Source: an uncultured delta proteobacterium (GTDB taxonomy: Bacteria; Myxococcota; Myxococcia; Myxococcales; Anaeromyxobacteraceae). From it: a stretch of DNA of 64,000 nucleotides. Both the position numbers and the translations under genes were made by a program. The DNA lies in assembly GCA_963766715.1 (NCBI GenBank), contig CAVYBH010000015.1:256001-320000 (forward strand). The letters are read 5' to 3'. Position 1 is the first letter of the stretch; every line of letters begins with the position of its first letter. This document shows, piece by piece, positions 16,108-43,863 of the stretch. The notes under the pieces are model-generated. The model ran no database searches. It was given only the letters and a program-made list of their open reading frames with translations, and was not told where the DNA came from.

Positions 16108-18247
16108 GCGCGGGCACGATGGGGCGCCGCACCTTCCTCGAGATCGCGGCCGGGACGGGGCTCTGGCTGGCCGCCAGCCCGCTGCGGGTGGCCGCCGCCG
16201 ATCCCGCCTCCCCGGCTTCCGCGTCCGGGTTCCAGCCGAGCGTCTGGCTGAACGTCGATCCGAAGGGCGCGGTGACCGTGTTCCTGGGCCGCTCCGAGAT
16301 GGGGCAGGGCAGCTACACCGGCATGGCGGTGCTCGTGGCGGAGGAGCTCGACGCCGACTGGAAGACGGTGCGCGTGGTCCAGGGCGACGCCGATCCGAGG
16401 TACGGCCGGATGATCACCGGCGGGTCGTCCAGCGTCCGCCAGTCCTGGGAGCCGCTCCGGAAGGCCGGCGCCGCCGCCCGCGAGATGCTCGTCGCCGCAG
16501 CGGCCGCGCGCTGGGGCGTCGAGCCGGCGTCCTGTCGCGCCGGGAACGGCGAGGTGACCCACGCCGCCTCGGGCCGCCGCGCGACCTACGGAGAGCTGGC
16601 CCAGGAGGCCTCCCGGGTGCCGGTGCCGGAGAGCCCGCGCCTCAAGGACCCGAAGGACTACCGGCTCATCGGCAAGGCCGTTCCCCGGCTCGACACACCG
16701 GCGAAGACCCGCGGTGCGGCCACCTTCGGGATCGACGTCCGCGTCCCCGGAATGCTCCACGCCGCGGTGGCCCGGCCGCCCACGCTGGGCGGCAAGGTGG
16801 TGCGCTTCGACGCGAAGAAGGCCCTCGCGATCCCGGGCGTGCGGAAGGTGTTCGAGGTGCCGAGCGGGATCGCGGTGGTCGCCGACACGACCTGGAGCGC
16901 CTTCCGCGGCCGGGATGCGCTCGACGTCGTCGTTCGAGCCGGGGCCGAACGGCTGCCCTCGACTCGGCGGCCATCGCCCGGCTCGTGCTCGCCGCGCCGG
17001 TGGACGAGAAGCCCGCCCGCAGCGAAGGGGACCTCGAGAAGGCGCTCGCCGGCGCCGCGAAGAAGGTCACCGCGACCTACCACCTCCCCTTCCTCGCCCA
17101 CGCCACCATGGAGCCCATGAACTGCGTGGCCCGGGTCGACGCCGGCGGGGCCGAGATCTGGGCCCCCACCCAGGCGCCGCTGTGGGCGCGCGGCGACGTG
17201 GCCAAGGCGCTCGGCCTTCCGGACGACAAGGTGGTGGTGCACGTCACCTTCCTCGGAGGGGGCTTCGGTCGCCGCGCCTTTCCCGACTTCGTGCTCGAGG
17301 CCGCGCACGTCTCGAAGGGAGCCGGGGCCCCGGTGCAGGTCACCTGGACCCGCGAGGACGACCTCCGGGGCGACTACTTCCGCCCCTGCGGCGTGAACGA
17401 GCTGCGCGCCGGCCTCGACGCGAAGGGGAACCTCGTCGCCTGGCACCACCGCGTGCGGAGCCCGTCCATCTCCGCGCAGCACTTCGGAAGCTCCGGGCGC
17501 AACGGCCATCCGGACGTGGTGGAGGGAGCGGTGGACGTCCCGTACCGGTCCCGCGCCATCCGCGTCGACAGCGCCATGCCCGAGGTCGGCGTGCGGCTCG
17601 GCTGGTGGCGCTCGGTCTACGCGTCCCAGAACGCCTTCGCCGAGGAGAGCTTCGTGGACGAGGTGGCGCACGCCGCCGGGAAGGACCCGCTGGCCTTCCG
17701 GCTCGCGCTGCTCCCGCCCGATCATCCCCTGCGGACGGTCCTCGCGCTGGCCGGCGAGAGGGCCGGCTGGGGAAGGAAGCTCCCGAAGGGGGTCGCCCGC
17801 GGCATCGCCTGCCAGTCGTCCTTCGGCAGCCACGTCGCGGAGGTGGCGGAGGTCACGCTCGTGAAGGGGAAGGTCCGCGTGAACCGGGTCGTGGTGGCCG
17901 TCTCCTGCGGCACGGCGCTCAACCCGGACAGCGTGGCCCACCAGATGGAAGGGTCCGTGGCCTACGGGCTCTCCGCGGCGCTGCGCGGCGAGATCACCTT
18001 CGCGAAGGGGGCCGCGGTCCAGGACAACTTCCACCTCTACGAGCCCCTGCGCATCTCCGAGATGCCGAAGGTCGAGACCTTCATCGTGCCGAGCACGGCC
18101 GCTCCGGGCGGCATCGGCGAGCCGGGCCTTCCCCCCATCGCACCGGCGGTGGCGAACGCGCTCTTCGCGCTCACCGGGGAGCGGCTGCGCAGCCTGCCCT
18201 TCAAGGTCGCGGCAGCGGGTCGTCCTTCCGGAACGCCGTCCCGGTGA
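16104..18247 (+). CDS. Xanthine dehydrogenase family molybdopterin-binding large subunit, IorB type (frameshift near 16935)
   Basis: Tat-like [57 protein letters not shown]. Confidence 0.88.
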
Positions 18248-26818: not shown

Positions 26819-27436
26819 TCAGGGACGCTCGACCTCGACCGCCTCGACCCAGACCTGCTCGCAGGCGCCCGAGCCGACGTCGTCCCGGGACAGGCTGGTG
26901 GGCGACTGGAAGGCGGTGCGCCCGGCGCGGTCCCGGATCACCACGTCGACGAGCTTGCCTCGGAGCGTCACCAGGTCGCCCTCGCGGATCCGCTTCATCT
27001 CCCGGGCCACCTCGTCCGACGCGGGCACCAGGTGGTGGTTCGCCACGTGGCGCTCGATGACCTGCTGCCCGGGAAAGGCCCCACCGCCGTCGTGCCACCA
27101 GCTGACGTACCGGCCGGAGAGGTGGAACTTCATGTGCGCCAGCACCTCGGGGGTGGCGACCGGGCCCCAGGCGAGGGCCAGGTCCATGGGGAGGACGAAG
27201 TCCCACTGATCGAGCAGCGTCCGGCTGGTGTCGACCGCGTAGCCGGTGATGCGGTAGCCGGCGCGCGGCGTGAGGGTGACGTGGTGCTCCTTGGCCTCGA
27301 ACTCGATGGGCGCCTCCCCGGCGAGCGCCACCTGCTCCGGCTCCGCCGCGGCGCGGGCCGGATCGACGCGGGCGCGCCAGTCCCGGCAGCCGGCGAGGAC
27401 GAGGAGCGCGGCCAGTGCCAGCCGGCGCGCGATCAT
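26819..27436 (-). CDS. Conserved hypothetical lipoprotein
   Basis: MIARRLALAALLVLAG-C lipobox; PMDLALAWG, ANHHLVPA, SLSRDDVGSGACE. Confidence 0.7.
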   Translation of the reverse strand: MIARRLALAALLVLAGCRDWRARVDPARAAAEPEQVALAGEAPIEFEAKEHHVTLTPRAGYRITGYAVDTSRTLLDQWDFVLPMDLALAWGPVATPEVLAHMKFHLSGRYVSWWHDGGGAFPGQQVIERHVANHHLVPASDEVAREMKRIREGDLVTLRGKLVDVVIRDRAGRTAFQSPTSLSRDDVGSGACEQVWVEAVEVERP

Positions 27437-27923: not shown

Positions 27924-28679
27924 GTGCGCCTCGACACCTATGGCTGGCTGGTCCTCCTGGAGATCGCGCTGGCCGTCCCCACCCTGCTCTCGCTCGTCTT
28001 CATCCCCGCCCCCTACGGCCGTCACGAGCGGAAGGGCTGGGGCCCCACCATCCCCGCGCGGGTCGGCTGGATCGTCATGGAGAGCCCGGCGGTCTGGTTC
28101 TTCGCCTGGGTCTACTTCCAGGGCCCGAACGCGCTGCGGCCGGTGCCGCTCGTGCTGCTCGCCCTCTGGCAGCTCCACTACCTGTACCGGGCCTTCGTCT
28201 TCCCCTTCCTGCTGCGGGCCGAGGGGCGGCGCATGCCGGTCACGGTGGCCGCCATGGCCTTCCTCTTCAACCTGCTCAACAACTGGATCAATGCCCGCTG
28301 GATCTCGGCGATGGGCGACTATCCCGCCGGCTGGCTCTCCTCCACCCCGTTCCTGGTGGGCTCCGCGCTCTTCCTGGGGGGCTTCGCGCTCAACGTGACC
28401 TCCGACCGGACCCTGCGGAACCTCCGGGCCCCCGGGGAGACCGGCTACCGGATCCCCCGAGGCGGCGCCTTCGAGCTCGTCACCGCCCCCAACTACCTGG
28501 GCGAGATCATCGAATGGACCGGCTGGGCCATCCTGACCTGGTCGCCCGCCGGCCTGGCCTTCGCCGTCTACACCTTCGCCAACCTGGCCCCCCGCGCCGT
28601 CTCTCACCATCGCTGGTACCGGGAGCGCTTTCCCGACTACCCTGCGGGACGCAAGGCCTTCATCCCCTTCCTCCTCTAG
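27924..28679 (+). CDS. 3-oxo-5-alpha-steroid 4-dehydrogenase (SRD5A-type 5-alpha-reductase)
   Basis: APYGRH, WIVMESP, HYLYRA, SD..LRNLR..GETGYRIPRGG.FE.V..PNYLGEIIEW.G, PRAVSHHRWY...FPDYP..RKA.IPF. Confidence 0.92.
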   Translation: MRLDTYGWLVLLEIALAVPTLLSLVFIPAPYGRHERKGWGPTIPARVGWIVMESPAVWFFAWVYFQGPNALRPVPLVLLALWQLHYLYRAFVFPFLLRAEGRRMPVTVAAMAFLFNLLNNWINARWISAMGDYPAGWLSSTPFLVGSALFLGGFALNVTSDRTLRNLRAPGETGYRIPRGGAFELVTAPNYLGEIIEWTGWAILTWSPAGLAFAVYTFANLAPRAVSHHRWYRERFPDYPAGRKAFIPFLL

Positions 28680-28690
28680 GTGGACAAAGA

Positions 28691-29644
28691 GTGAAGATCC
28701 TCCTCACCGGACCCTTCGGCAACATCGGTTCCCACGTCATCCCCGAGCTGCTCCGCGAGGGGCACCAGGTCCGCGCCTTCGACCTGGACACCCCGGCGAC
28801 CCGCAAGGCGGCCCGCGACCTCGGCAAGAAGGTCGAGCCGGTCTGGGGCGACGTCCGCGACGCCCGGGCGGTCGCGCGGGCGGTCGAGGAGATGGACGCG
28901 GTGCTGCACCTGGCCGCGGTCATCCCCCCCGGGTCGGACGAGGACCCCGAGCGCACCCGGGCCGTGAACGTGCAGGGCACCGCGAACGTGGTGCAGGCCA
29001 TCCAGGGGCGCTCGCGCAAGCCGAAGCTCCTCCTCACCTCGACCTTCGACGTGCACGGCCACACGCTCCAGAAGCCGCCGCCCCGGCGGGTCGACGACCC
29101 CGTGGTGGGGACCGATCCGTACACGGAGAGCAAGATCGCGTCGGAGGCGCTGGTGCGCGAGTCGGGGCTGGACTGGTGCATCTTCCGGTTCACCGACGTG
29201 CCGATCATCGGCCTGCGCGACCCGCACCCGATCATGTTCGAGATCGGGCTCGACAACCGCATCGAGGCCCTCCACCCCGACGACGCCGCCACCGCGGTGG
29301 CCCGGGCGCTGCGGACGCCGGCGGTGTGGGGGCGCACCCTCTTCGTGGGCGGCGGAGCCTCCTGCCAGCTCACCTACCGCGAGTACCTCACCCGCATGCT
29401 CCGGGCCATGGGCATGGACATGCTGCCCGACGAGGCCTTCAGCGACGCCGAGTACCCCACCGACTGGGTGGACAGCGAGGAGTCGCAGCGCCTGCTCCGG
29501 TACCAGCGGCACAGCTTCGACGACATCACGGCCGACATCGCGAAGTGCCTGGGGTGGAAGAAGGCCTTCGTCCCCATGGCCTCGCCGATGGTCCGCAAGA
29601 AGATGCTGGAGATGTCGCCCTACTGGAAGCAGCGGCAGCGGTAG
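28691..29644 (+). CDS. Extended SDR, NAD-dependent epimerase / 3-beta-hydroxysteroid dehydrogenase-like
   Basis: TGPFGNIG, VLHLAA, NV.GT.N, YTESK catalytic motif; starts 11 nt after the SRD5A homolog. Confidence 0.8.
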   Translation: MKILLTGPFGNIGSHVIPELLREGHQVRAFDLDTPATRKAARDLGKKVEPVWGDVRDARAVARAVEEMDAVLHLAAVIPPGSDEDPERTRAVNVQGTANVVQAIQGRSRKPKLLLTSTFDVHGHTLQKPPPRRVDDPVVGTDPYTESKIASEALVRESGLDWCIFRFTDVPIIGLRDPHPIMFEIGLDNRIEALHPDDAATAVARALRTPAVWGRTLFVGGGASCQLTYREYLTRMLRAMGMDMLPDEAFSDAEYPTDWVDSEESQRLLRYQRHSFDDITADIAKCLGWKKAFVPMASPMVRKKMLEMSPYWKQRQR

Positions 29645-29680
29645 TCGAGCCGCCGCCGCGCTTCCCGGGCCGCCGGCCGC

Positions 29681-30463
29681 CTACTCGCCCGCGGCGGTCT
29701 TGTGGTGGGCGTGGCCGTGCGAGTGGGCCGACGCGATGTGCGGCTTCCCGTGGCGCCCCGGAAGCACCTTGGCCGGGCGCGCGCCCGGGCCGGCCGGGAT
29801 GGCGTCGTCGGGGGGCTTCGTCGCGAAGACGCGGTTGACGATCGGCGCCATGAGACCCAGGCTGGTGGCCGCCAGCTTGCGCAGCGGGTTGCGCGAGGCC
29901 TCGCCGTTGGGGAGCGGCTGGCTCCAGGCCTTCCCGAGCAGGTCCATGTACATCCCCACGGTCTGCCCCGCGGTGGCGAAGTCGAGCGTGGAGAGGATCT
30001 CGTCGGCCAGGCCGAACGGCATGGACGTCATGATGGGGCCGCGCATGTACTCGGTGGCCCAGACGCCGTCGGTGAAGTTCATGGCGCGAGCCTGGCCGGG
30101 TCCCACCCAGACGCGGTCGCCCGGCTTGTAGATCCGCTTCTCGAACTGCCCCTCGCCGAAGTAGTGCATCTCGCCGTCGATGACGGTGTCCCAGAAGCCG
30201 ACCGCGTGGCGCCCCGAGTGCCCCTCGGAGCCGATGGGGGTGCCCCAGATCATGAGGTATTCCATCGACGACGCGAAGTAGAGCTTCATCTGGATCATCG
30301 CGCCGCCGGCGATGCTGTACATCCAGGGCTGCGAGCGGTCAATCCGGCCCGGGTAGGCATCCTCCCAGGCGTCGGCGATGGCGTCGAACATCTCGGGCTT
30401 GGGCTTGCCGATCCCCTGCAGGGAACACTCGTGGATGACGTCGGCGTCGAAGATGTAGTCCAT
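29681..30463 (-). CDS. ERG2 / sigma-1 receptor family protein (C-8 sterol isomerase-like)
   Basis: W...AGGAM..M....AS..EYL.IWGT.IGSEGHSGRH, DTVIDG, Y.PGD....GPG.A, W..EY.RG.I....PFGLAD...STLDF, colinear with yeast ERG2 and human SIGMAR1 as recalled. Confidence 0.9.
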   Translation of the reverse strand: MDYIFDADVIHECSLQGIGKPKPEMFDAIADAWEDAYPGRIDRSQPWMYSIAGGAMIQMKLYFASSMEYLMIWGTPIGSEGHSGRHAVGFWDTVIDGEMHYFGEGQFEKRIYKPGDRVWVGPGQARAMNFTDGVWATEYMRGPIMTSMPFGLADEILSTLDFATAGQTVGMYMDLLGKAWSQPLPNGEASRNPLRKLAATSLGLMAPIVNRVFATKPPDDAIPAGPGARPAKVLPGRHGKPHIASAHSHGHAHHKTAAGE

Positions 30464-30541
30464 GGCCAGGCTCCGGTGGGGTGGGAGAAGGCCGGGATTC
30501 TACAACGCCTCGACGCAGTGTGTCGAAGCCCCCGGTACGGG

Positions 30542-31577
30542 TCAGGCCCTCCCCGGGCGGCGGGGCGGGATGGGCCGGTTGAGGGGGCTGTCCGGGTGGG
30601 TCTTCATCCAGTCCCAGGCGTCCCGGAGCGTCTGCACGACCGGCCGCGGGGCATGGCCGAGCTCCTCGCGCGCCTTCCGGTCCCGGATCTCGAAGTCGAC
30701 GGCCAGGGTGTGCACCGCATAGGGGGTGAGGAGCGAGCGTCGCCCGGTGACCTTCTCGAAGACGGGCGCGAAGGCGGCGATCCCCGCGGCGACCCGGAGC
30801 GGGATGAAGACCCTCGGAGGCGTCCTCCCCGCCAGGCCGGCCAGGTTCCGCATCAGCTCGCGGACGGTCATGCGCTCCCCGGAGAGGAGGTAGCTCTCCC
30901 CCTTGCGCCCCCGCTCCGCGGCGAGCACGTGGCCGATGGCGACGTCGCGGACGTCGACGAAGTCGTAGCAGCCTTCCGTCCCCGCCGGCACGGGGAAGCG
31001 GGAGAACAGGACGATGACCTCCCCGATCTCGGAGAGCCGGTAGTCGTGGGGGCCGAGCACGTAGACCGGGTTCACGATCACCGCGTCCAGCCCGTCCCGG
31101 ACCGCGTCGAGCACGATCCGGGAGGCGGCGGCCTTGGCCTTGCCGTAGTCGCCGGGCGCGAGCGCCGGGTCGTAGCCGGCCTCCTCGGTGAGCACGCCCC
31201 CCTTGCCCGGCTCGGTGAGGGCGTGGACCGAGCTCGTGTAGACGAGCCGCCCCACCCCGGCCTCGCGCGCCGCCGCGACCACGTTCCGCGTCCCGTCGAC
31301 GTTCACGGTGCGTACGCTCTCGATGTCGAGCGAGCTGATGCTCACCACCCCGGCCAGGTGGAAGACCACGTCCGCCCCGGCGAAGGCCGCGGGCAGGGTC
31401 GTCGGGCCGCAGCACGTCGCCCTGCACCCGCTCCACGTCGAGGCCGGAGAGCGCGCGGGCCTCGTCGCCCGGCTGCACCAGCGCGCGAACCCGCTTCCCG
31501 CGCCGGAGGAGCTCGCGCACCAGCGCGTTGCCGAGGTGGCCGGTGGCCCCGGTGACGGTCGCGGTCTGGAAGTCCAT
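30542..31577 (-). CDS. Extended SDR, HpnA / dihydroflavonol-reductase / 3-beta-HSD-like (frameshift near 31400)
   Basis: VTGATGHLG, VFHLAG, NVDGTRNV, YTSSV, YGKAK, IVNP..V.GP.D, FVDVRDVA.GH. Confidence 0.82.
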
Positions 31578-31599
31578 GCGCGGGTTCGCTCCTCTTCCT

Positions 31600-32106
31600 T
31601 CAGGGCGAGGCCAGGAGGGCCTCGAGGGTTCGCTGCCGGTGGGCGAAGGTCCGCGCCATCTCGGGCCCCACGAAGAGCCGCTCGGCGATCGCGCCGAGGG
31701 GACCGAGGCCGACATCGTACTCGAGCAGGTCGCGAACCACCGTGCCCTCGCGCCCATCCACCCGGCGAGGCTCGAACTCGTGCCGGTGGGACCAGCGGCG
31801 GAAGGGTCCCCGCTCCTGGACGTCGGCGAAGTGGTGGTCGCGCTCGTACGAGACGATGCGGGCCACCCACTGGCTCCGGAGGGGCAGCGGCGGGAGCAGC
31901 CGCACCGAGACCACGATCTCGGTGCCGGCGCCGGCCTCCTCCGAGCCCGGGGAGGCGCCGGGCGGCGGCACCCGCACGATCCGCACGATCTCGGCCCCGA
32001 GCCGCGGCGGCATGATGCGCGGGAGGTTCCGCGGATCGGAGAAGAAGCGGAACACGCGGGGGAGCGGGACCGGGACCCACTGCTCGAACTGGATGCGCTG
32101 GCTCAT
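31600..32106 (-). CDS. SRPBCC (START/Bet v1-like) family protein
   Basis: VF.FFSDPRNL..I.PP, W.ARI, F.DVQ..GPF..W.H.H.F, F.HR. Confidence 0.82.
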   Translation of the reverse strand: MSQRIQFEQWVPVPLPRVFRFFSDPRNLPRIMPPRLGAEIVRIVRVPPPGASPGSEEAGAGTEIVVSVRLLPPLPLRSQWVARIVSYERDHHFADVQERGPFRRWSHRHEFEPRRVDGREGTVVRDLLEYDVGLGPLGAIAERLFVGPEMARTFAHRQRTLEALLASP

Positions 32107-32127
32107 GGCTTCCGGACCTGGGCCCTC

Positions 32128-32980
32128 TCACCACTCGAAGAAGTAGGAGAGCAGGACGCCCACCATGAAGACCTCGCCCTCGGCGGCCACGGGGTCGAGC
32201 GCGGTCTCGTACTCGGCCGCCAGCACCACCGATCGGCTGGCGGTGAGGAATCTCCCGGCGGTGAACTTGAGGAGCGACCCCACGTTTCCGTCCTGGAAGC
32301 TCCAGCTGGTCTTGTCCTGGGCCGACACGAAGAACCAGGCCGGCAGCGCCACCGAGACGGTGGGCTTGAGCTGGAGGGTGTTCACCGGCTTGTAGCTGCC
32401 CAGGTTGCCGAACGACTTCTGCCAGTTGAGCTCGACCGAGAGCGCCACGATGGAGGAGAGGCGGAAGGCGACCACGTAGACCGGCTCGATGATCCAGGGC
32501 TGGCCCACCGCGGCGTTCGTGCCGGTGTTCCACTGGAGCTCCAGCCCGGCCGCCTGCCGGATCCCCTCGTGCGCGTAGAAGGCCCAGAGGAGCGTGCTGG
32601 TGAGGCTCGCGAAGCCGGAGACGGTGGGCTCGCCGGCGGTGTTCGGGTAGTGGGTCTCGACGGGGATCTCCAGGCGGAGCGAGAACTCCCGCTCGACGCC
32701 CCAGACGAAGATCGGCTTGAAGGTGAACTCGCCCGTGGCGGCCCCGGCCGCCTTCTCGGTCCACTCGTACTTGAGCTGGAGCGTGTTGCGGGTGAAGACC
32801 GGCGAGTCCACCAGCTCCATGATGTCGAGCAGGTGCCGGAAGCCGTGGTCGTGGCCGCGCCGCTCCTCCGAGGTCTCGGCCTCCTTGCGCTCCGCTCCGC
32901 CTCCTCCTGGGCCCGGGCGGAGGGGAGCCAGCAGCAAGGCGAGCAGGGAGAGCGTCGCGAGCGCGGGTCGTGGGGCGCAT
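32128..32980 (-). CDS. Putative outer-membrane beta-barrel protein (N-terminal indels)
   Basis: Reconstructed signal peptide ...LATLSLLALLLAPSARA-QEE, alternating amphipathic strands, C-terminus LSYFFEW ending in an aromatic residue. Confidence 0.55.
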
Positions 32981-33113
32981 CCGTCGACTGTACGGCAGTC
33001 GCGGGCCGATCGAGGGGCTCGATGCGGGATGCCCCGATCGGGCGCTCCTGGCCCCCCGGATGAGCCCTCGTCACTGAGCGGCAACTGTCCCATTGTCGTG
33101 CGGGGGTGTGGCC

Positions 33114-34430
33114 ATGTTCTGGGTCGAGCTCGCCGTCGTCCTGGCGATGATCGTGATCGGGGCCCGCTACGGCGGCCTGGGCCTGGGGATGATGGGCGGG
33201 CTCGGGGTCGCGATCCTCGCGTTCCTCCTCGGCGATCTCCCGTCCAGCCCTCCCATCGAGGTCATGCTGATGATCGCCGCGGTGGTGACCGCGGCCGGGA
33301 CCCTGCAGGCGGCGGGGGGCATGGACTACCTCGTCGACCTGGCCGAGAAGGCGCTTCGCCGCTACCCGCCGGCGATGACCTTCGTGGCGCCGCTCGTCGC
33401 CTACGTCTTCACGCTCTTCGCGGGGACGGGGCACGTCGCCTACGCCATCCTCCCCGTCATCGCCGAGGTCTCCCGGGAGGCCGGCGTGCGGCCGGAGCGG
33501 CCCCTCTCCATCTCGGTCATCGCCTCGCAGCAGGCCATCACCGCGAGCCCCATCTCGGCCGCCACGGTGGCCCTGCTCGTCCTCCTCGAGGGAACGGCAT
33601 CACGCTCGGCGGGCTCCTCGCGGTGTGCATCCCCGCCACGCTCCTGGGCGTCCTGGCCGGCGCGCTCGTCGCGAGCCGCATGGGCAAGGAGCTCGACGTG
33701 GACCCGGAGTACCTGCGGCGACTGGCCGAGGGGGAGATCGAGCCCCACGGACAGATCGGCCGCCCGGCCGCCACCTGGCAGGCGAAGGCTCGGTGGTCCT
33801 CTTCGTCCTCGGCGCCATGTCCATCGTCGCCTTCGGGTCGTTCCCGGCGCTGCGCCCCAGCTACGCGTCGGGCGGCAAGGTGGTCCAGATGGAGATGGCC
33901 GACGCCATCGAGATGGTGATGCTCTCGATCGCGGCGCTGATGGTGATGGTCTGCAAGGCGAAGGTGGAGAAGGTGGCCCACGGCTCGGTCTTCCAGGCCG
34001 GCATGCAGGCGGTGATCGCCATCTTCGGCGTGGCCTGGATGGGGGACACCTTCTTCAAGGCCAACCAGGCCACCGTCCAGGGACCGATGACGGCCATGGT
34101 GACAGGGCGCGCCGTGGACCTTCGCCATCGCGCTCTTCGTGATGTCGATCCTGCTCTACAGCCAGGCCGCCACCGTCCGCACGCTCGTCCCGCTGGGCGT
34201 CTCCATCGGGATGCCGGGCTGGGCGCTGGTGGGGATGTTCCCGGCGGTGAACGGCTACTTCTTCCTGCCCAACTACCCCGACCCTGGTGGCCGCCATCAA
34301 CTTCGACCGGACCGGCACCACCCGGATCGGCAAGTACCTGCTCAACCACAGCTTCATGATCCCGGGGCTCGTCGCCTCCGTCGTCTCGGTGGCGTCCGGG
34401 CTCCTGCTCGCGCGATTCATCCTCCTGTAG
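33114..34430 (+). CDS. Anaerobic C4-dicarboxylate transporter DcuA/DcuB (about 4 frameshifts)
   Basis: [34 protein letters not shown]...[63 protein letters not shown]. Confidence 0.9.
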
Positions 34431-38830: not shown

Positions 38831-40514
38831 TCAGCGCATCAGCGCGACGATCACCGGTCCCCACGCGGTGAGGAGGATGTTCCCCACCGCGTAGGGGACG
38901 GTGTAGCCGAGCACCGGCAGGCGGCTGTGGGCCGCGTCCTGGATGGCCCGCAGCGCCGCCGTCGTGGTGCCGGCGCCCGACTCGGCGCCGAGCAGGATCA
39001 CCGGGTTCATCTTCAGCACGTACCGGCCGAAGAGCAGCCCCACCGCGTGGGGCACGATCGAGACGAGGAGCGCGGCCGCGATGAGGCTCGGGCCGGTCTT
39101 CTGGATGCTCGCGACGAAGCTGGGGCCGGCGCCCAGCCCGACGATGCCGATGAAGGCCGCGAGCCCCACGCTGTCGAACACCCAGAGCGCGCCGTCGGGG
39201 ATCCTCCCGAAGGTGGGCCTCACCGAGCGCAGCCAGCCGAAGAAGAGCCCCATGACGAGCGCGCCGCCGCTCGTGGTGATGGTGATGGACACGCCGAACA
39301 CCGGGACGGCCACCAGGCCGATGAGCCCGCCCAGGAAGATGCCCAGTCCCGACGAAGATCATGTCGGTGGCGGCGGTGACGCGATCCGCGTAGCCGAGGC
39401 GCCGGGCGACCCGGGCGGTGTCGACCTGCCGCCCCTCGATCTGCAGGAGGTCGCCACCCTCGAGGAGCCGTGCTTCCCTCGAAGGGAATCTCCTGGCCGG
39501 CGCGGACGAGGCGGCGCAGCCGGATGCCGCGGCCGATCTCGCGGGCCAGCTCGGCGAGCGTGCGCCCCGCCACCTCGCGGTTCGTCACCACCACCTCGAG
39601 CTGCTCGGTCGGGAAGTCGAGCAGCTCGCGGTCCTGCACCTCGGCGCCGAGCCCCATGAGCTTCTCGATCAGGTCCGCCCGCTGGGCCACGATGGCCACC
39701 GTGTCGCCGTCGTGGATGACCGTGTCGGGGGTCGGTGTCGAAGACCAGGCCGTCGCGCCGGACCCGCTCCAGGAAGTACCGGACGCCGGGGACCGAGCCC
39801 TCGATCTCGTCCACGCGCCGGCCCGGCCGCCCCGAGGCCCGCGACCCGGATGGCCCGGACGTCCCACTCCGCGTAGGCCGAGGCGACGCCCTCCTCGGGG
39901 GTCTCCTTCCCGGCCAGCTGGATCTCGAGCTCCCGGGCCGCCTTCTGGAGGTCGACCTTCATGAGCCGCGGGGCGAGCGACGAGAGGAAGTAGACGAGCG
40001 TGGTGGTCCCGACCAGGTAGGTGACGGCGTAGGCCACCGGGACCTGGTTCGCCATGCGGGTCCGCTCGGCGGCGTCGATGGGGAGCCGCTGGATGGCCTC
40101 GGCGGCGGTGCCGATGATGGTCGACTCGGTGAAGGCGCCCGCCAGCAGCCCCGCCGCGGTCCCGGCGTCGTAGCCGAAGAGCTTCGAGACCACCACGGCG
40201 ACCGCGAGGCAGGTGACGGCCACCACCACCGCGAGGACGAGCTGCGGCAGGGCGTCCTTGCGGAGGCCGCGGAAGAACTGGGGACCGACCTTGTAGCCGG
40301 TGGCGAAGAGGAAGAGGTCGAAGAAGACGACCTGGACCGTCGGCGAGACGTGCACGTCGAGCTGGCCGATGACGACGCCGGCCAGCAGGCACCCCAGCAC
40401 CGTTCCCACGGTGAAGGTGCCGATGCGCAGCCTTCCGACGAGGAACCCCACGGCGAGCGTGAGGAAGATCGCCAGCTCGGGGTGCTGTTGGAGGATGTTC
40501 GCGAAGCCGGCCAT
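38831..40514 (-). CDS. aspT: Aspartate:alanine antiporter (multiple frameshifts)
   Basis: PELAIFLTLA.G, FLFATGYKVGPQFF.GL, AGLLAGA.TES..IG, VAYAVTY..GT, TrkA-C-like middle region, GA.TTTAAL, LGYTVPYAVGNILLT.WG. Confidence 0.85.
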
Positions 40515-40570: not shown

Positions 40571-41621
40571 CTACTTCCTCAGGCTCTTCGCGTCGATGAC
40601 GAAGCGGTAGCGGACGTCGGCCTTCAGCATGCGCTCGTAGGCCTCGTTCACCTTCTCGGCGGGGATGACCTCGACGTCGGCGGTGATGCCGTGCTTCCCG
40701 CAGAAGTCGAGCATCTCCTGGGTCTCGGCGAGGCCGCCGATGAGGGAGCCGGCCAGCGTCTTGCGGCCGAAGATGAGCCCCATGGCGTGGACCGGGGCCG
40801 CCTCGGGCGGCACGCCCACGAGGACCAGCGCCCCGTCGGTCTTGAGGAGGGAGAGGTAGGCGTTCAGGTCGTGGGGCGCCGAGATGGTGTCGAGGATGAA
40901 GTCGAACTTGCCGGCCAGGCGCTTGAAGGTGCCCTTGTCGGAGGTGAGGCCGAACCCGGTGGCGCCCAGCCGCCGCGCGTCGGCCTCCTTGCCCTTCGAG
41001 GTGCTGAGCATGGTCACCTCGGCGCCCATGGCCGCCGCGAGCTTCACGGCCATGTGCCCGAGGCCGCCCAGGCCCACCACGCCGACCTGGTCGCCCTTCT
41101 TCACCTTCCAGTGGCGAAGCGGCGAGTAGGTGGTGATCCCGGCGCAGAGCAGCGGGGCTGCGCCGGCGGGGTCGAGGTTCGCGGGGATCGAGAGGACGAA
41201 CTTCTCGTCGACCACCTCGTCGGTGGCGTAGCCGCCGTAGGTCGGCGTCTTCCGGTCCATCTCGGTGCCGTTGTAGGTGAAGGCGGCGCCCTTCTCGCAG
41301 AACTGCTCCAGGTCCTTCTTGCAGGGGGAGCAGACGCGGCAGGAGTCGACCAGGCATCCGACGCCGACCCGGTCGCCGACCTTGAACCGCTTCACCTCGG
41401 CGCCGACCTTCGTCACCCGTCCGACGATCTCGTGGCCGGGGACCATGGGGAACGTGGAGTTCCCCCATTCGTCCCGGACCTGGTGGATGTCGGAGTGGCA
41501 GATCCCGCAGAACTCGACGTCGAAGGCGACGTCGTGCGGGACCGACGGCGCGCCGCTCGAACTCGAACGGGGCGAGGGGGCTCTTCGGATCGAAGGCGGC
41601 GTAGGCCTTGGTCTTGGGCAT
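40571..41621 (-). CDS. Zn-dependent NAD(P)H alcohol dehydrogenase, cinnamyl/YahK type (frameshift near 41550)
   Basis: CGICHSD, GHEIVG, C.VC..C...EQFC, PLLCAGIT.YSPL, GLGGLG, DVRYRFVID. Confidence 0.92.
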
Positions 41622-41631
41622 GCGGGGAGAG

Positions 41632-42715
41632 TTAGGCGAGGGAGCCCGCTGCCGCAACGCCGAGAGGGGGGGTCACCGGATCGCGTCGCATGCCCTCCCG
41701 CGCGTCGGCTTCCAGGCGAACGGGCCCGAGGCGGCCGTCGAAGAACTCGGGGACGAGGACGTCTGCGCCGAGCGCCGGGGCGCCGGCCGCCCGGGCGGCG
41801 AACCCGCCCACGGCGATGCAGGCGTGGGGCGCCGCGTGCCGGACCATCGCCGCGGCCTCCCGCGCCGCGGGCAGGTGCGCGATGGTCGACACGCCGATGC
41901 CGACGAGCGTCGGCTTCCGCTCCACCGCCGCCACGGCGAGCTGCACCGCCGGCGTGTCCGCCCCCAGCACCTCCACCGAGAAGCCCTCCAGCTCGAGCAG
42001 GTGGGCGGCCAGGCGGATCGCGGTGACGTGGAACTCCCCCGGCGCCGCCGCCAGGATGGCCGGGCCCCGGAAGCGCTTCCCGGGAGCGCCCCAGGTCTCG
42101 GAGACCAGCGTGGCCATCCCGAGCTCGGCGAGCTCGGTGGCCCGGTGCTCCTCCACCACGGTGGCCTGGTGGCGCATCCACGCCTCGCCCGCCTGCCGCT
42201 GCACGTGGGCGATGCCGAGGATCGCCCCGCGCGACGCCGCGCGCCTCCCGCCAGCCGTCGACCTCGGAGAGGTAGAGCTCCCGCGCACCCCGGAAGGCCG
42301 CGCGCACGGCGGGCTCGAGCTCCACCAGGCTAGTCGAGGTGCTCCTCCTCGGCGGCCTCGATGCCGCGACTCGAGCGCCCTCCCGAGCCAGGACCGCTCC
42401 TCGGCCGGCAGGTCGAGCCGGGGAGCCCGGCCGGCCATCGCCCGGAGGCAGGCGCCCACGCTGCCCGGGGGGAGCCCCGACGACTCGTGCACCTGCGCCG
42501 CCCAGTGGGCGTGGGCCCGGAACACCGACGGGGCGCGGAGGTCGACGGCCGCGGCGAGCGCGCGGGCGTGGCTCTCCATCTCCCACTCGCAGGCGTGGCG
42601 CCCCTGCGTGCGCCGGTCGCGCAGCGGCTCGGAGGCCGCCAGGATCTCCTCGATCAGGGACGGGCGCCTCGGCGAGGAGCACCGAGGCCACCCGTGCGTC
42701 CACCCGCGCGCGCAT
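41632..42715 (-). CDS. Cobalamin-binding domain protein with CarH-like motifs and no MerR HTH (frameshifts; start approximate)
   Basis: GEAW-x9-EH (W MRHQATVVE EH), PGEFH base-off His loop, LGADTP, VGIGVS, VGG. Confidence 0.75.
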
Positions 42716-42741
42716 GGGGAAGGAGCCTTGCCCCCAGACCC

Positions 42742-43863
42742 TAGATCGTCGCGGCGAAGATGGCCACCCTCCTCCAGACCCTGCTCGAAGGACGCCAGGT
42801 CGAACCCGCTCCCCGACGCCATCCAGTCGAAGTGGGGCGGGATGTGGTTGGGCTGGTTGTAGTGGCCGATGACGTCGTGGTGGTCGGCCCAGGCGGCCGC
42901 CACGAGCTCCCCGTGGATCTGGGAGAGCGTGGGGACGATGCCGTCGTTGGCGGCGGCGTCGGGGATGCGCCCGTAGGCGCGCCGGAGCACGGCGGCGTGG
43001 TCGCGCGTGATGCGCGGCATCCAGCCCTCGGGCGTGCTGGCCGAGAGCCGGTAGAGGGCCACGAAGAGCGCGTGGGTGACCTGGTGCGAGGGGTTCCACC
43101 CGGCGCCCCAGAGCGACCGGAACCCCGGGGAGCGGGCCTGGGTGACCACGGAGCCGTAGCGGAGGCCGGGGCGGTCCTGGCTGGAGGCGTTGAAGACCTC
43201 CATCCCGGCCGGCGAGATCTGGGAGACGAGCCCCTGGTCGCTGCGAACTCCCTCGAGGAACTGGGCGACGGCGCGGCGGCGGTCTCCCTCGAAGTCGCCG
43301 AGCAGCTCCAGGAAGATCTGGTCGACGGCGCCGGTGGCGCGGGAGCGGGGGTTGCGCAGCAGGCGCGCCAGCCGCAGCCCCGCCGAGATGGGCAGCTGCC
43401 CGGTCCGCAGCGTGTAGATCGAGACGAGCGAGAGGAGGCGGAGGAACTGCTGGCCGAACATGCCTCCGAAGAACTGGGCCAGCGGCGTGCCGTGGTGCGG
43501 GGTCGACACCGTGACCACCGACCGGACCGCCCGGGCGCAGCGCTCCACGTCGGCGGGGGTGGGGAGGACCACGCCCGGCGTCACCATCAGCCGGGCGTCG
43601 AGGCCGCCGCTCGAGTGCCCGACCAGGCTCACCCGGCCGGGCGACTCGTCGAGGAGCGCGCTCACCGCCTCGCAGAGGAGCGCGGCCCGGCGGGCCAGGG
43701 AGGCGGTGGGCTCGGTGCGCGCCACCCGGACCTCCCCGTCGATGCCCAGCTCGGGCCCCTTCTCGGCCACGTAGTTCCGGACGTGGCCGAAGTAGGTGAA
43801 GTCGCCGAGGTTGGCGAACCCGAAGAAGCCCGGGACGAGCAGGAGGTGATGGGGGCGGCCCAC
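42742..43863 (-). CDS. Triacylglycerol lipase-like alpha/beta hydrolase (indel near the 3' end)
   Basis: LVPGFFGF, LVGHSSGGLDAR, STPHHGTPLA, NDGIVP..SQ, ADHHDVIGH. Confidence 0.85.

Follow-up and report, generated by a model that had tools for sequence, protein, structure and literature searches.

A conserved SRD5A–SDR–ERG2-like gene trio in Anaeromyxobacteraceae and Actinomycetota as a candidate steroid-remodelling module

Introduction

Bacterial steroid-ring remodelling clusters have been described from the metabolism of bile acids and cholesterol in the gut. In Bacteroidota, a gene for an SRD5A1-like 5α-reductase (5AR) is clustered with a 3β-HSDH gene, and the remodelling of the bile-acid A-ring leads to isoallo-lithocholic acid; the genes named in the passages of PMC10382948 also include a flavin oxidoreductase but no ERG2-like one. 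ERG2 homologs sit in bacterial sterol-synthesis clusters, the CSGs of sponge symbionts, which, according to the accessible part of the source, contain OSC, CYP51 and ERG24 for an oxygen-dependent synthesis of sterols (PMC9531527). The reductase PbSRD5A reduces progesterone with NADPH, and the same report, in its available portion, defines the QEY motif of the steroid 5α-reductases and describes the loss of activity in the human Q56A/L mutants (PMC7815742). Stanol/sterol and 5β/5α ratios serve as environmental and fossil biomarkers, as stated in the accessible text of PMC12362056. In the literature searched, no description was found of an SRD5A, SDR and ERG2-like combination, or of a steroid-ring remodelling cluster of free-living soil or sediment anaerobes. 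Here we analyze a locus with this combination. The window under study comprises 64,000 nt of the assembly GCA_963766715.1 (contig CAVYBH010000015.1) of an uncultured member of the Anaeromyxobacteraceae.

Results and Discussion

Gene calling by GC3 phase, followed by a Pfam scan of the window, placed six genes at 27924–32980 in two convergent units, and their position, order and strands agree with the initial annotation. The first gene of the forward unit (27924–28679, + strand) encodes a 251 aa homolog of the SRD5A1/2-type integral-membrane steroid 5α-reductases (PF02544, 7.1e-53). Its score of 179.1 bits lies above the curated cut-off of 22.6 and covers profile positions 2–150 of 150. The protein matches PbSRD5A (PDB 7C83) over the full length with an E-value of 1.1e-88, query residues 6–250 being aligned to chain residues 12–257 of 258. 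The match to human SRD5A2 (7BW1) is also full-length (3.6e-47), and that to the enoyl-CoA reductase branch is far weaker (2.5e-13). The proposed SRD5A family membership is thus borne out, and the full-length alignment would fit a seven-helix architecture as in 7C83. As in PbSRD5A and human SRD5A2, the C-terminal NADPH-binding half is conserved, as are the catalytic glutamate and tyrosine (E53 and Y86), which are kept in 28 of 28 copies linked to the module described below. Unlike in those two enzymes, the glutamine of the QEY signature is replaced by methionine throughout the clade (Met52, MEY); each of the 28 module-linked copies shows this change, as do 118 of the 120 closest relatives. SRD5A-family proteins are very numerous in bacteria, with 5226 matches at E <= 0.001 among 8000 scored.

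The stop codon of the reductase gene is separated by 11 nt from the start of SDR1 (28691–29644, + strand), which encodes an extended SDR of 317 aa. Its Pfam matches to Epimerase (82.6 bits, 3.7e-23) and 3Beta_HSD (72.1 bits, 5.2e-20) are both restricted to the N-terminal (Rossmann) half. The sequence contains the Rossmann motif TGPFGNIG (TGxxGxxG), the acidic residue of FDLD and the YTESK motif of the Ser/Thr-Tyr-Lys type, in which Y144 and K148 do not vary across 27 orthologs. To judge from these residues, the enzyme is probably NAD-dependent. The best PDB sequence matches are sugar epimerases and dehydratases (GDP/UDP-sugar 4-epimerases and 4,6-dehydratases), over residues 1–185 only, and NSDHL is matched with only 2.2e-06. 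The folds nearest to the structure model (pLDDT 92.7) are likewise NDP-sugar epimerases and dehydratases (TM 0.76–0.79), and neither the family models nor the fold comparison revealed a steroid-specific signature. The likeness of SDR1 to sugar epimerases is therefore at least equal to that with 3β-HSDs. The initial annotation had named a grouping of the SDRs with sugar epimerases as an outcome that would speak against a steroid function. Since the nearest relatives of SDR1 are NDP-sugar enzymes, this outcome has come about in part; the second dehydrogenase, SDR2, falls with HpnA and SdmB.

The gene facing SDR1 (29681–30463, - strand) encodes an anchor-less homolog of ERG2 and the sigma-1 receptor of 260 aa (ERG2_Sigma1R PF04622, 1.2e-43). 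With 149.3 bits at a cut-off of 21 and an E-value of 3.6e-28 to the sigma-1 receptor structure 5HK1, its assignment to this family is confirmed. The cupin core aligns with that of the fungal C-8 sterol isomerase ERG2 and of the animal sigma-1 receptor, and the acidic pair is kept: D92 and E138 are invariant in 15 bacterial sequences and align to D126 and E172 of sigma-1, which we take to be the acidic pair of the ligand pocket, assuming this numbering and a chain offset of 4. In contrast to ERG2 and the sigma-1 receptor, which have an N-terminal transmembrane anchor, the bacterial protein starts behind it. The alignments begin at profile position 21 of PF04622 and, with query residue 3, at chain residue 39 of 5HK1, and 15 of 15 aligned bacterial sequences begin past the anchor. 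The protein instead carries a variable Pro/Ala/Gly-rich C-terminal tail. The gene is present in all 13 genomes of the genus (13/13). Unlike in the fungal ERG2 and sigma-1 settings, the bacterial hosts of ERG2-like genes are mostly without sterol synthesis. Features that count against a steroid reading include MEY in place of QEY, the ERG2-like protein without an anchor and the nearness of SDR1 to sugar enzymes.

The remaining three genes of the reverse unit encode SDR2, an HpnA/SdmB-like extended SDR (30542–31577, - strand), a small SRPBCC/START-like protein of 168 aa (31600–32106, - strand) and an exported outer-membrane β-barrel (32128 to about 32980, - strand). SDR2 is broken into two frame pieces by one extra base near 31401, as compared with four relatives that have a single ORF, and the 5′ end of the barrel gene spans three frames in the present assembly, whereas its orthologs carry clean signal peptides. 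The neighbouring dcuA gene is found in five frame segments, which marks the assembly as indel-prone, and the breaks in SDR2 and the barrel gene are therefore probably artefacts. An intact SDR2 ortholog (locus L025) aligns full-length to the HpnA and SdmB models with 260.8 and 223.8 bits, respectively; both scores lie below the NCBIfam equivalog cut-offs of 367.65 and 600. The PDB matches of SDR2 are 3WJ7 (2.4e-49) and NSDHL (1.2e-15). The protein groups with HpnA, the sterol C-4 demethylase SdmB and NSDHL, and the initial interpretation is supported for SDR2 to the extent that it falls with the triterpenoid-associated HpnA and SdmB, below their cut-offs. The locus showed no SdmA-type partner. 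The SRPBCC assignment rests on Polyketide_cyc (PF03364, 4.7e-08), which bears out the earlier claim, and no solved relative was found by sequence. The barrel, too, had been recognized correctly. It ends in SYFFEW, and the model of an intact ortholog is confident (pLDDT 85.5), with about 12–13 strands and a long N-terminal helix. It matches the folds of FapF, NanC, OmpG and the COG4313 channel 4RL8. The present barrel resembles FapF, NanC and 4RL8 (TM 0.6–0.75) as a small outer-membrane β-barrel of about 12 strands; it differs from them in the long helix, the identity of about 10–14% and the lack of any Pfam family at E <= 0.01, including PF13557 (COG4313/Phenol_MetA_deg). Only 41 relatives were found among 1.84 billion representatives, and in one nearest Atlas cluster 17% of the members carry PF13557.

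The arrangement of SRD5A and SDR1 convergent with the ERG2-like gene was found in all nine related Anaeromyxobacteraceae loci. SDR2 is present in six of these nine, the SRPBCC gene in four and the barrel gene in three. The conserved core therefore consists of SRD5A, SDR1 and the ERG2-like gene only; the other three come and go within the genus, and the idea of six genes forming one conserved unit has to be given up. Among 80 ERG2-like loci, the partners within 3.5 kb are a classical SDR in 40, an SDR1-type gene in 34 and SRD5A in 25. The 25 SRD5A-linked loci belong to Anaeromyxobacteraceae/delta-proteobacteria (17) and to Actinomycetota (8); the eight Actinomycetota loci have the whole core and include those of cultured Rugosimonospora species. 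Neither SRD5A nor the SDR1 type accompanies the other 46 loci, of which 26 have the classical SDR only and 20 none of the three. The classical SDR, the commonest partner elsewhere, is absent from the present locus. The trio proteins are about 60–65% identical between Myxococcota and Actinomycetota and are adjacent in both; this adjacency persists even where a fourth gene has been inserted or lost, with a 2 kb spacer in the locus L063. Since the arrangement recurs in all nine related genomes and in two phyla, the association is not due to chance, and the predicted co-location is confirmed for these three genes.

The absence of squalene epoxidase and oxidosqualene cyclase, noted earlier for the window, extends to the whole genome (84.6% complete). 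No Pfam match was obtained there to an OSC/SHC-type cyclase, squalene epoxidase, ERG4/24, squalene synthase or P450 (PF13243, PF08491, PF01222, PF00494 and PF00067). The cyclase model PF13243 likewise gave no match in the 16 other genomes searched from the three ERG2-bearing genera, the 11 of the present genus included. A full-length cyclase is lacking in 30 of the 40 ERG2-like-bearing genomes examined. A squalene-hopene-type cyclase is present in three of the four SRD5A-linked Actinomycetota genomes tested, and an endogenous triterpenoid is therefore a possible substrate there.

Similar to the Bacteroidota cluster, the present locus combines an SRD5A-like gene with SDR-type genes in bacteria that do not make steroids. 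It shares the adjacency of SRD5A and SDR genes, while the flavin 5β-reductase is missing, and the Pfam scan showed no flavin oxidoreductase in or beside the cluster. The Bacteroidota cluster, as far as the available excerpt describes it, acts on bile acids in the gut without an ERG2-like protein (PMC10382948), whereas the present module belongs to sediment and soil Myxococcota and Actinomycetota. With the sponge-symbiont CSGs it has in common a bacterial ERG2 homolog linked to enzymes of sterol-modifying type; it differs from these sterol-building clusters, as excerpted, in a genome without a cyclase, P450 or ERG4/24 match (PMC9531527).

As no sterol-synthesis family was matched in the genome, the remodelling of exogenous sterols toward 5α-stanols is regarded as the best reading. 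We consider the chances about even that the genes form a module for remodelling the rings of steroids or sterols not made by the cell, and the soil or sediment host would probably take its sterols from outside. We infer the substrate, the order of the steps, the roles of the SDRs and the purpose of the module (membrane use, detoxification or another). The first reaction would be the oxidation by a dehydrogenase to a 3-oxo steroid. The ERG2-like protein may then move a ring double bond, with the conserved Asp/Glu pair as acid-base catalyst. In the third step SRD5A would saturate the conjugated Δ4 bond with NADPH to yield the 5α-3-ketone, which would finally be reduced by an SDR to a 5α-stanol-type product. 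In sister lineages a classical SDR joins the core of SRD5A, SDR1 and ERG2-like protein. Within the genus, the HpnA/SdmB-like SDR, the START-like lipid binder and the outer-membrane barrel are putative accessories for the import and handing over of the hydrophobic substrate.

The module might instead act on an endogenous hydrophobic molecule that is not a steroid, such as an isoprenoid, a quinone-related or a polyketide-like lipid. The family names would then reflect shared chemistry only (enone reduction, alkene isomerization and alcohol/ketone redox). We consider this unlikely. It would fit the occurrence of ERG2-like genes in many anaerobes (Spirochaetota, Dehalococcoidales), often with the classical SDR only or with none of the three partners, the many cyclase-free hosts, the size of the SRD5A family, the MEY clade and an SDR1 lacking steroid-specific features. 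Against it stand the full-length similarity to a progesterone-reducing enzyme, the grouping of SDR2 with SdmB, HpnA and NSDHL, and a locus in which no candidate pathway for an endogenous substrate was seen; ERG2 homologs moreover occur in bacterial sterol clusters, as the available text reports (PMC9531527). That the genes are mere neighbours without a common pathway is very improbable. The accessory genes do vary within the genus, and the convergent orientation implies two separate transcripts, but the trio stays adjacent across two phyla at the protein identity given above.

The initial annotation had suggested steroids as an electron sink, and anaerobic steroid use for energy, either in this way or as a first catabolic step, would agree with anaerobic-type genes of the host, both near the locus and farther away (DcuA/B, aspartase, NiFe hydrogenase, class I fumarase) and with two plausible reductive steps in the module. 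The SRD5A enzymes are, however, NADPH-dependent membrane proteins, nothing at the locus points to respiratory coupling, and in the Pfam scan no genes for ring cleavage, side-chain degradation or a respiratory reductase appeared in the cluster flanks. The electron-sink idea finds no support, and energy use as a whole appears improbable. A role in envelope glycan or carrier-lipid formation, with SDR1 and SDR2 as nucleotide-sugar epimerases or dehydratases and the SRD5A-family protein as a polyprenol-type reductase, seems quite improbable. The relatives of SDR1 in sequence and fold would suit it, HpnA carries the name of a sugar epimerase, and the SRD5A family includes polyprenol reductases. Yet the reductase falls with SRD5A1/2 rather than with the distant branch, the sugar-enzyme matches of SDR1 stop at residue 185, no glycosyltransferase or flippase was seen in the cluster, and the ERG2-like and SRPBCC genes would be left unexplained.

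Conclusions

Carried further, the reading as a sterol-remodelling module leads to a wider proposal, which we put forward only tentatively and hold to be rather doubtful. The module would be a microbial route for the hydrogenation of plant, algal and fungal sterols to 5α-stanols where soils and sediments are anoxic. Anchor-less ERG2-type isomerases of a new class would supply the conjugated enone to SRD5A, and hosts without sterol or hopanoid synthesis would saturate scavenged sterols for their own membranes. Since the trio is present in cultured Rugosimonospora species, the question is open to laboratory experiments. We know of no agents identified for the formation of 5α-stanols. If the module acts on sterols, it would provide candidate genes for this process and a function for the anchor-less relatives of the human sigma-1 receptor that are widespread in bacteria. 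Natural partners would also be named for the clade neighbouring PbSRD5A, an enzyme used as the structural model of a human drug target.

Organization of the gene cluster

The window belongs to a genome of 4.2 Mb in 18 contigs (84.6% complete, 3.5% contaminated), with a G+C content of ~72%. Since shadow ORFs swamp plain ORF lists at this composition, the genes in the window were called by third-position GC phase (GC3). A Pfam profile search of the window confirmed the gene families named in the initial annotation, each at its proposed position. The plus strand carries the SRD5A gene (27924–28679; 7.1e-53) and the extended SDR gene SDR1 (28691–29644), which starts 11 nt past the SRD5A stop. A gap of 36 nt separates this pair from the convergent minus-strand unit with spacers of about 20–80 nt, which comprises the ERG2_Sigma1R gene (29681–30463; 1.2e-43), a second extended SDR gene, SDR2 (30542–31577), the SRPBCC gene (31600–32106) and an ORF belonging to no Pfam family, the barrel ORF (32128 to about 32980). 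SDR2 and SRPBCC were likewise identified with Pfam. According to the same profiles, both flanks are unrelated to the cluster. One encodes an AraC protein, a lipoprotein-like unknown and a GNAT protein, and the other encodes DcuA/B, aspartase and asparaginase. The lipoprotein-like gene (26819–27436, minus strand) encodes 205 aa that match no family; the N-terminus reads ...LVLAGC. Together with the GNAT acetyltransferase gene, this gene adjoins SRD5A genus-wide, and it does not do so in other genera. Farther away in the window, a 743-aa protein (41632–43863, minus strand) has a B12-binding domain at its C-terminus in addition to a PGAP1-like alpha/beta-hydrolase region. Metagenomes from freshwater, sediment and wetland contain close relatives of this DNA (four runs, four studies aligned); the best pieces show two differences each, over 263 and 362 letters.

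Conservation of the cluster

A genome search detected PF04622 (ERG2_Sigma1R) in all 13 other genomes of the genus. Elsewhere in the family it was detected in two genera (3/3 and 1/2 genomes), and the 24 genomes searched from the order's other families gave no match. At all nine related loci the SRD5A–SDR1 pair is convergent with ERG2. The cluster had been proposed to comprise six genes; SRD5A, SDR1 and ERG2 are indeed constant (9/9), but SDR2, SRPBCC and the barrel gene are patchy, being found at six, four and three of the nine loci, respectively. The six-gene picture is reduced to a conserved core of three or four genes with lineage-specific accessories.

A scan for ERG2-like relatives with one genome per species yielded 132 loci, of which 80 were retained, from Anaeromyxobacteraceae, other Myxococcota, Actinomycetota, Spirochaetota and Chloroflexota. 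Neighbors were counted with tblastn within 3.5 kb of ERG2 at identity ≥ 35% and coverage ≥ 60%, and the counts are lower bounds because several contigs stop near ERG2. A classical SDR (adh_short) accompanies ERG2 at at least 40 loci, an SDR1-type gene at at least 34 and SRD5A at at least 25. Seventeen loci contain SRD5A with SDR1, and eight contain both together with adh_short; SDR1 occurs with adh_short at six loci and as the only one of these neighbors at three, adh_short is the only one at 26, and the remaining 20 have none of them. Of the 25 SRD5A-linked loci, 17 are Anaeromyxobacteraceae/delta-proteobacterial and 8 are from Actinomycetota, among them the trio-bearing Rugosimonospora africana NBRC 104875 and R. 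acidiphila JCM 18304. In sister genera, adh_short is placed between SDR1 and ERG2, and in Dehalococcoidales it shares the strand of ERG2 and sits immediately upstream of it. One Dehalococcoidales MAG (L099:10678–14133, minus strand) has genes for an Abhydrolase_3 esterase and a glycyl-radical enzyme (PFL-like plus Gly_radical) after the adh_short–ERG2 pair. In a midpoint-rooted ERG2 tree built with a quick method, all SRD5A-linked proteins fall into one large group, inside which a clade of SRD5A-less Spirochaetota is nested. The linkage of SRD5A and ERG2 may have arisen once and then been lost in some lineages.

Frame breaks

In the window, SDR2 is split over two frames. It has one extra base near 31401 compared with four relatives, in which the gene is a single ORF. 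The 5′ end of the barrel gene is spread over three frames, and its orthologs have clean signal peptides. Such breaks could reflect decay of the cluster or errors of assembly. The dcuA gene (33093–34424, plus strand), encoding a DcuA/B C4-dicarboxylate transporter, consists of five frame segments when compared with an intact ortholog, and a classical SDR gene on another contig (G000:C12:340379–341153, minus strand) is likewise frame-shifted. Because these other genes, including the unrelated dcuA, are also affected and the relatives are intact, the breaks in SDR2, the barrel gene and dcuA are probably assembly indels and not decay. Among the contigs of four public runs aligned to 30500–32200, none spans 31390–31470, the site of the SDR2 break. 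The middle segments of dcuA show a lower identity of 72–74% to the intact ortholog. The SDR on contig C12 is about 50% identical to the adh_short partner of ERG2 in the sister genera; its neighbors, a NiFe hydrogenase, ABC-F and fumarase, are uninformative. Further assembly indels may account for an Asp-Al_Ex permease in two separate pieces (38831–39313 and 39669–40514, minus strand), a zinc alcohol dehydrogenase without its N-terminus (40571–41446, minus strand) and a seemingly truncated molybdopterin-binding subunit (16985–18247, plus strand).

Predicted functions of the gene products

The SRD5A protein aligns end to end with the solved bacterial steroid 5-alpha-reductase PbSRD5A (7C83; E 1.1e-88) and with human SRD5A2 (E 3.6e-47), and its match to enoyl-CoA reductase is weak (2.5e-13). 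PbSRD5A is described as reducing progesterone with NADPH in PMC7815742, which also defines the QEY signature of steroid 5-alpha-reductases. The protein from the window retains Glu53 and Tyr86 of this signature, and its Gln is replaced by Met. The resulting MEY motif is shared by 28/28 module-linked SRD5A copies and by 118 of the 120 closest database relatives.

The ERG2-like protein aligns from profile position 21, corresponding to chain residue 39 of the sigma-1 receptor structure 5HK1, and therefore has no N-terminal anchor. An alignment of 15 bacterial ERG2-like sequences contains 83 invariant columns, including the residues aligned to what we take to be D126 and E172 in sigma-1 receptor numbering.

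Both SDRs had been considered possible steroid enzymes. SDR1 contains the motifs TGxxGxxG and YTESK, and its acidic residue following beta-2 suggests NAD as the cofactor. Its matches to known families are confined to residues 1–185 or less. The nearest folds to its confident model (pLDDT 92.7) are NDP-sugar epimerases and dehydratases, and its best PDB sequence match is 8RDG, a structure cited by a paper on GDP-sugar 4-epimerases. SDR2, scored on the intact ortholog from the related stretch L025, aligns over its full length with HpnA and with SdmB, a sterol demethylase; the scores of 260.8 and 223.8 bits, respectively, fall short of the equivalog cut-offs. SDR2 also matches NSDHL (1.2e-15).

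The last ORF of the minus-strand unit encodes a real exported barrel. The protein ends in ...SYFFEW, and a model of an intact ortholog, built from an alignment of 16 sequences (pLDDT 85.5), has about 12–13 strands behind a long helix. Its fold matches FapF, NanC, OmpG and the COG4313 channel 4RL8. The family is rare, with 41 matches at E ≤ 0.001 among 1.84 billion representatives.

Steroid-ring remodelling and the origin of the substrate

The best-supported mechanism for the cluster would be remodelling of the steroid rings of scavenged sterols, for which we consider the chances evenly balanced. Its chief supports are SRD5A, the ERG2-like protein, SDR2 and the lack of matches to biosynthesis families, whereas the likeness of SDR1 to sugar enzymes and the MEY motif count against it. 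A review (PMC10382948) describes an SRD5A1-like 5AR of Bacteroidota clustered with a 3-beta-HSDH and a flavin reductase, with allo-bile acids as the product, and ERG2 is reported in PMC9531527 among the genes of some bacterial sterol-synthesis clusters. Literature searches, with most subscription journals outside their coverage, returned no published SRD5A–ERG2 module, and neither PMC13277303 nor PMC12667688 mentions it.

The lack of squalene epoxidase and oxidosqualene cyclase genes noted for the window was borne out by a search of the whole genome (84.6% complete), in which the models for OSC/SHC-type cyclases (PF13243), squalene epoxidase (PF08491), squalene synthase (PF00494) and P450 (PF00067) had no match. 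ERG4/24 (PF01222) gave no match either, a weak blank as this model is silent in all control genomes too. The genome encodes a 182-aa protein of the EXPERA/EBP family (G000:C8:847770–848318, equal to L103:7771–8319, plus strand; PF05241, 42.9 bits, above cut-off). Sterol delta-8/delta-7 isomerases occur in this family as well as in that of ERG2, and sigma-2 receptors belong to it too. An RND efflux operon runs divergently from the gene and an aldehyde dehydrogenase gene lies beside it, an uninformative context.

A search for PF13243 in 16 other genomes from the family's three ERG2-bearing genera likewise gave no match. A cyclase is present in four other genera, and another four lack both it and an ERG2-like gene. 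No Anaeromyxobacteraceae genome among those searched, in partly different subsets, combines the two genes. This lack of co-occurrence within the family would fit a role of the cluster products as a hopanoid surrogate, an idea weakened by the four genera with neither gene and by the full-length cyclases in 10 of 40 ERG2-bearing genomes outside the family. These ten include three of the four SRD5A-linked Actinomycetota tested. For this lineage, the simplest assumption is therefore that the substrate is exogenous, though not as a universal rule.
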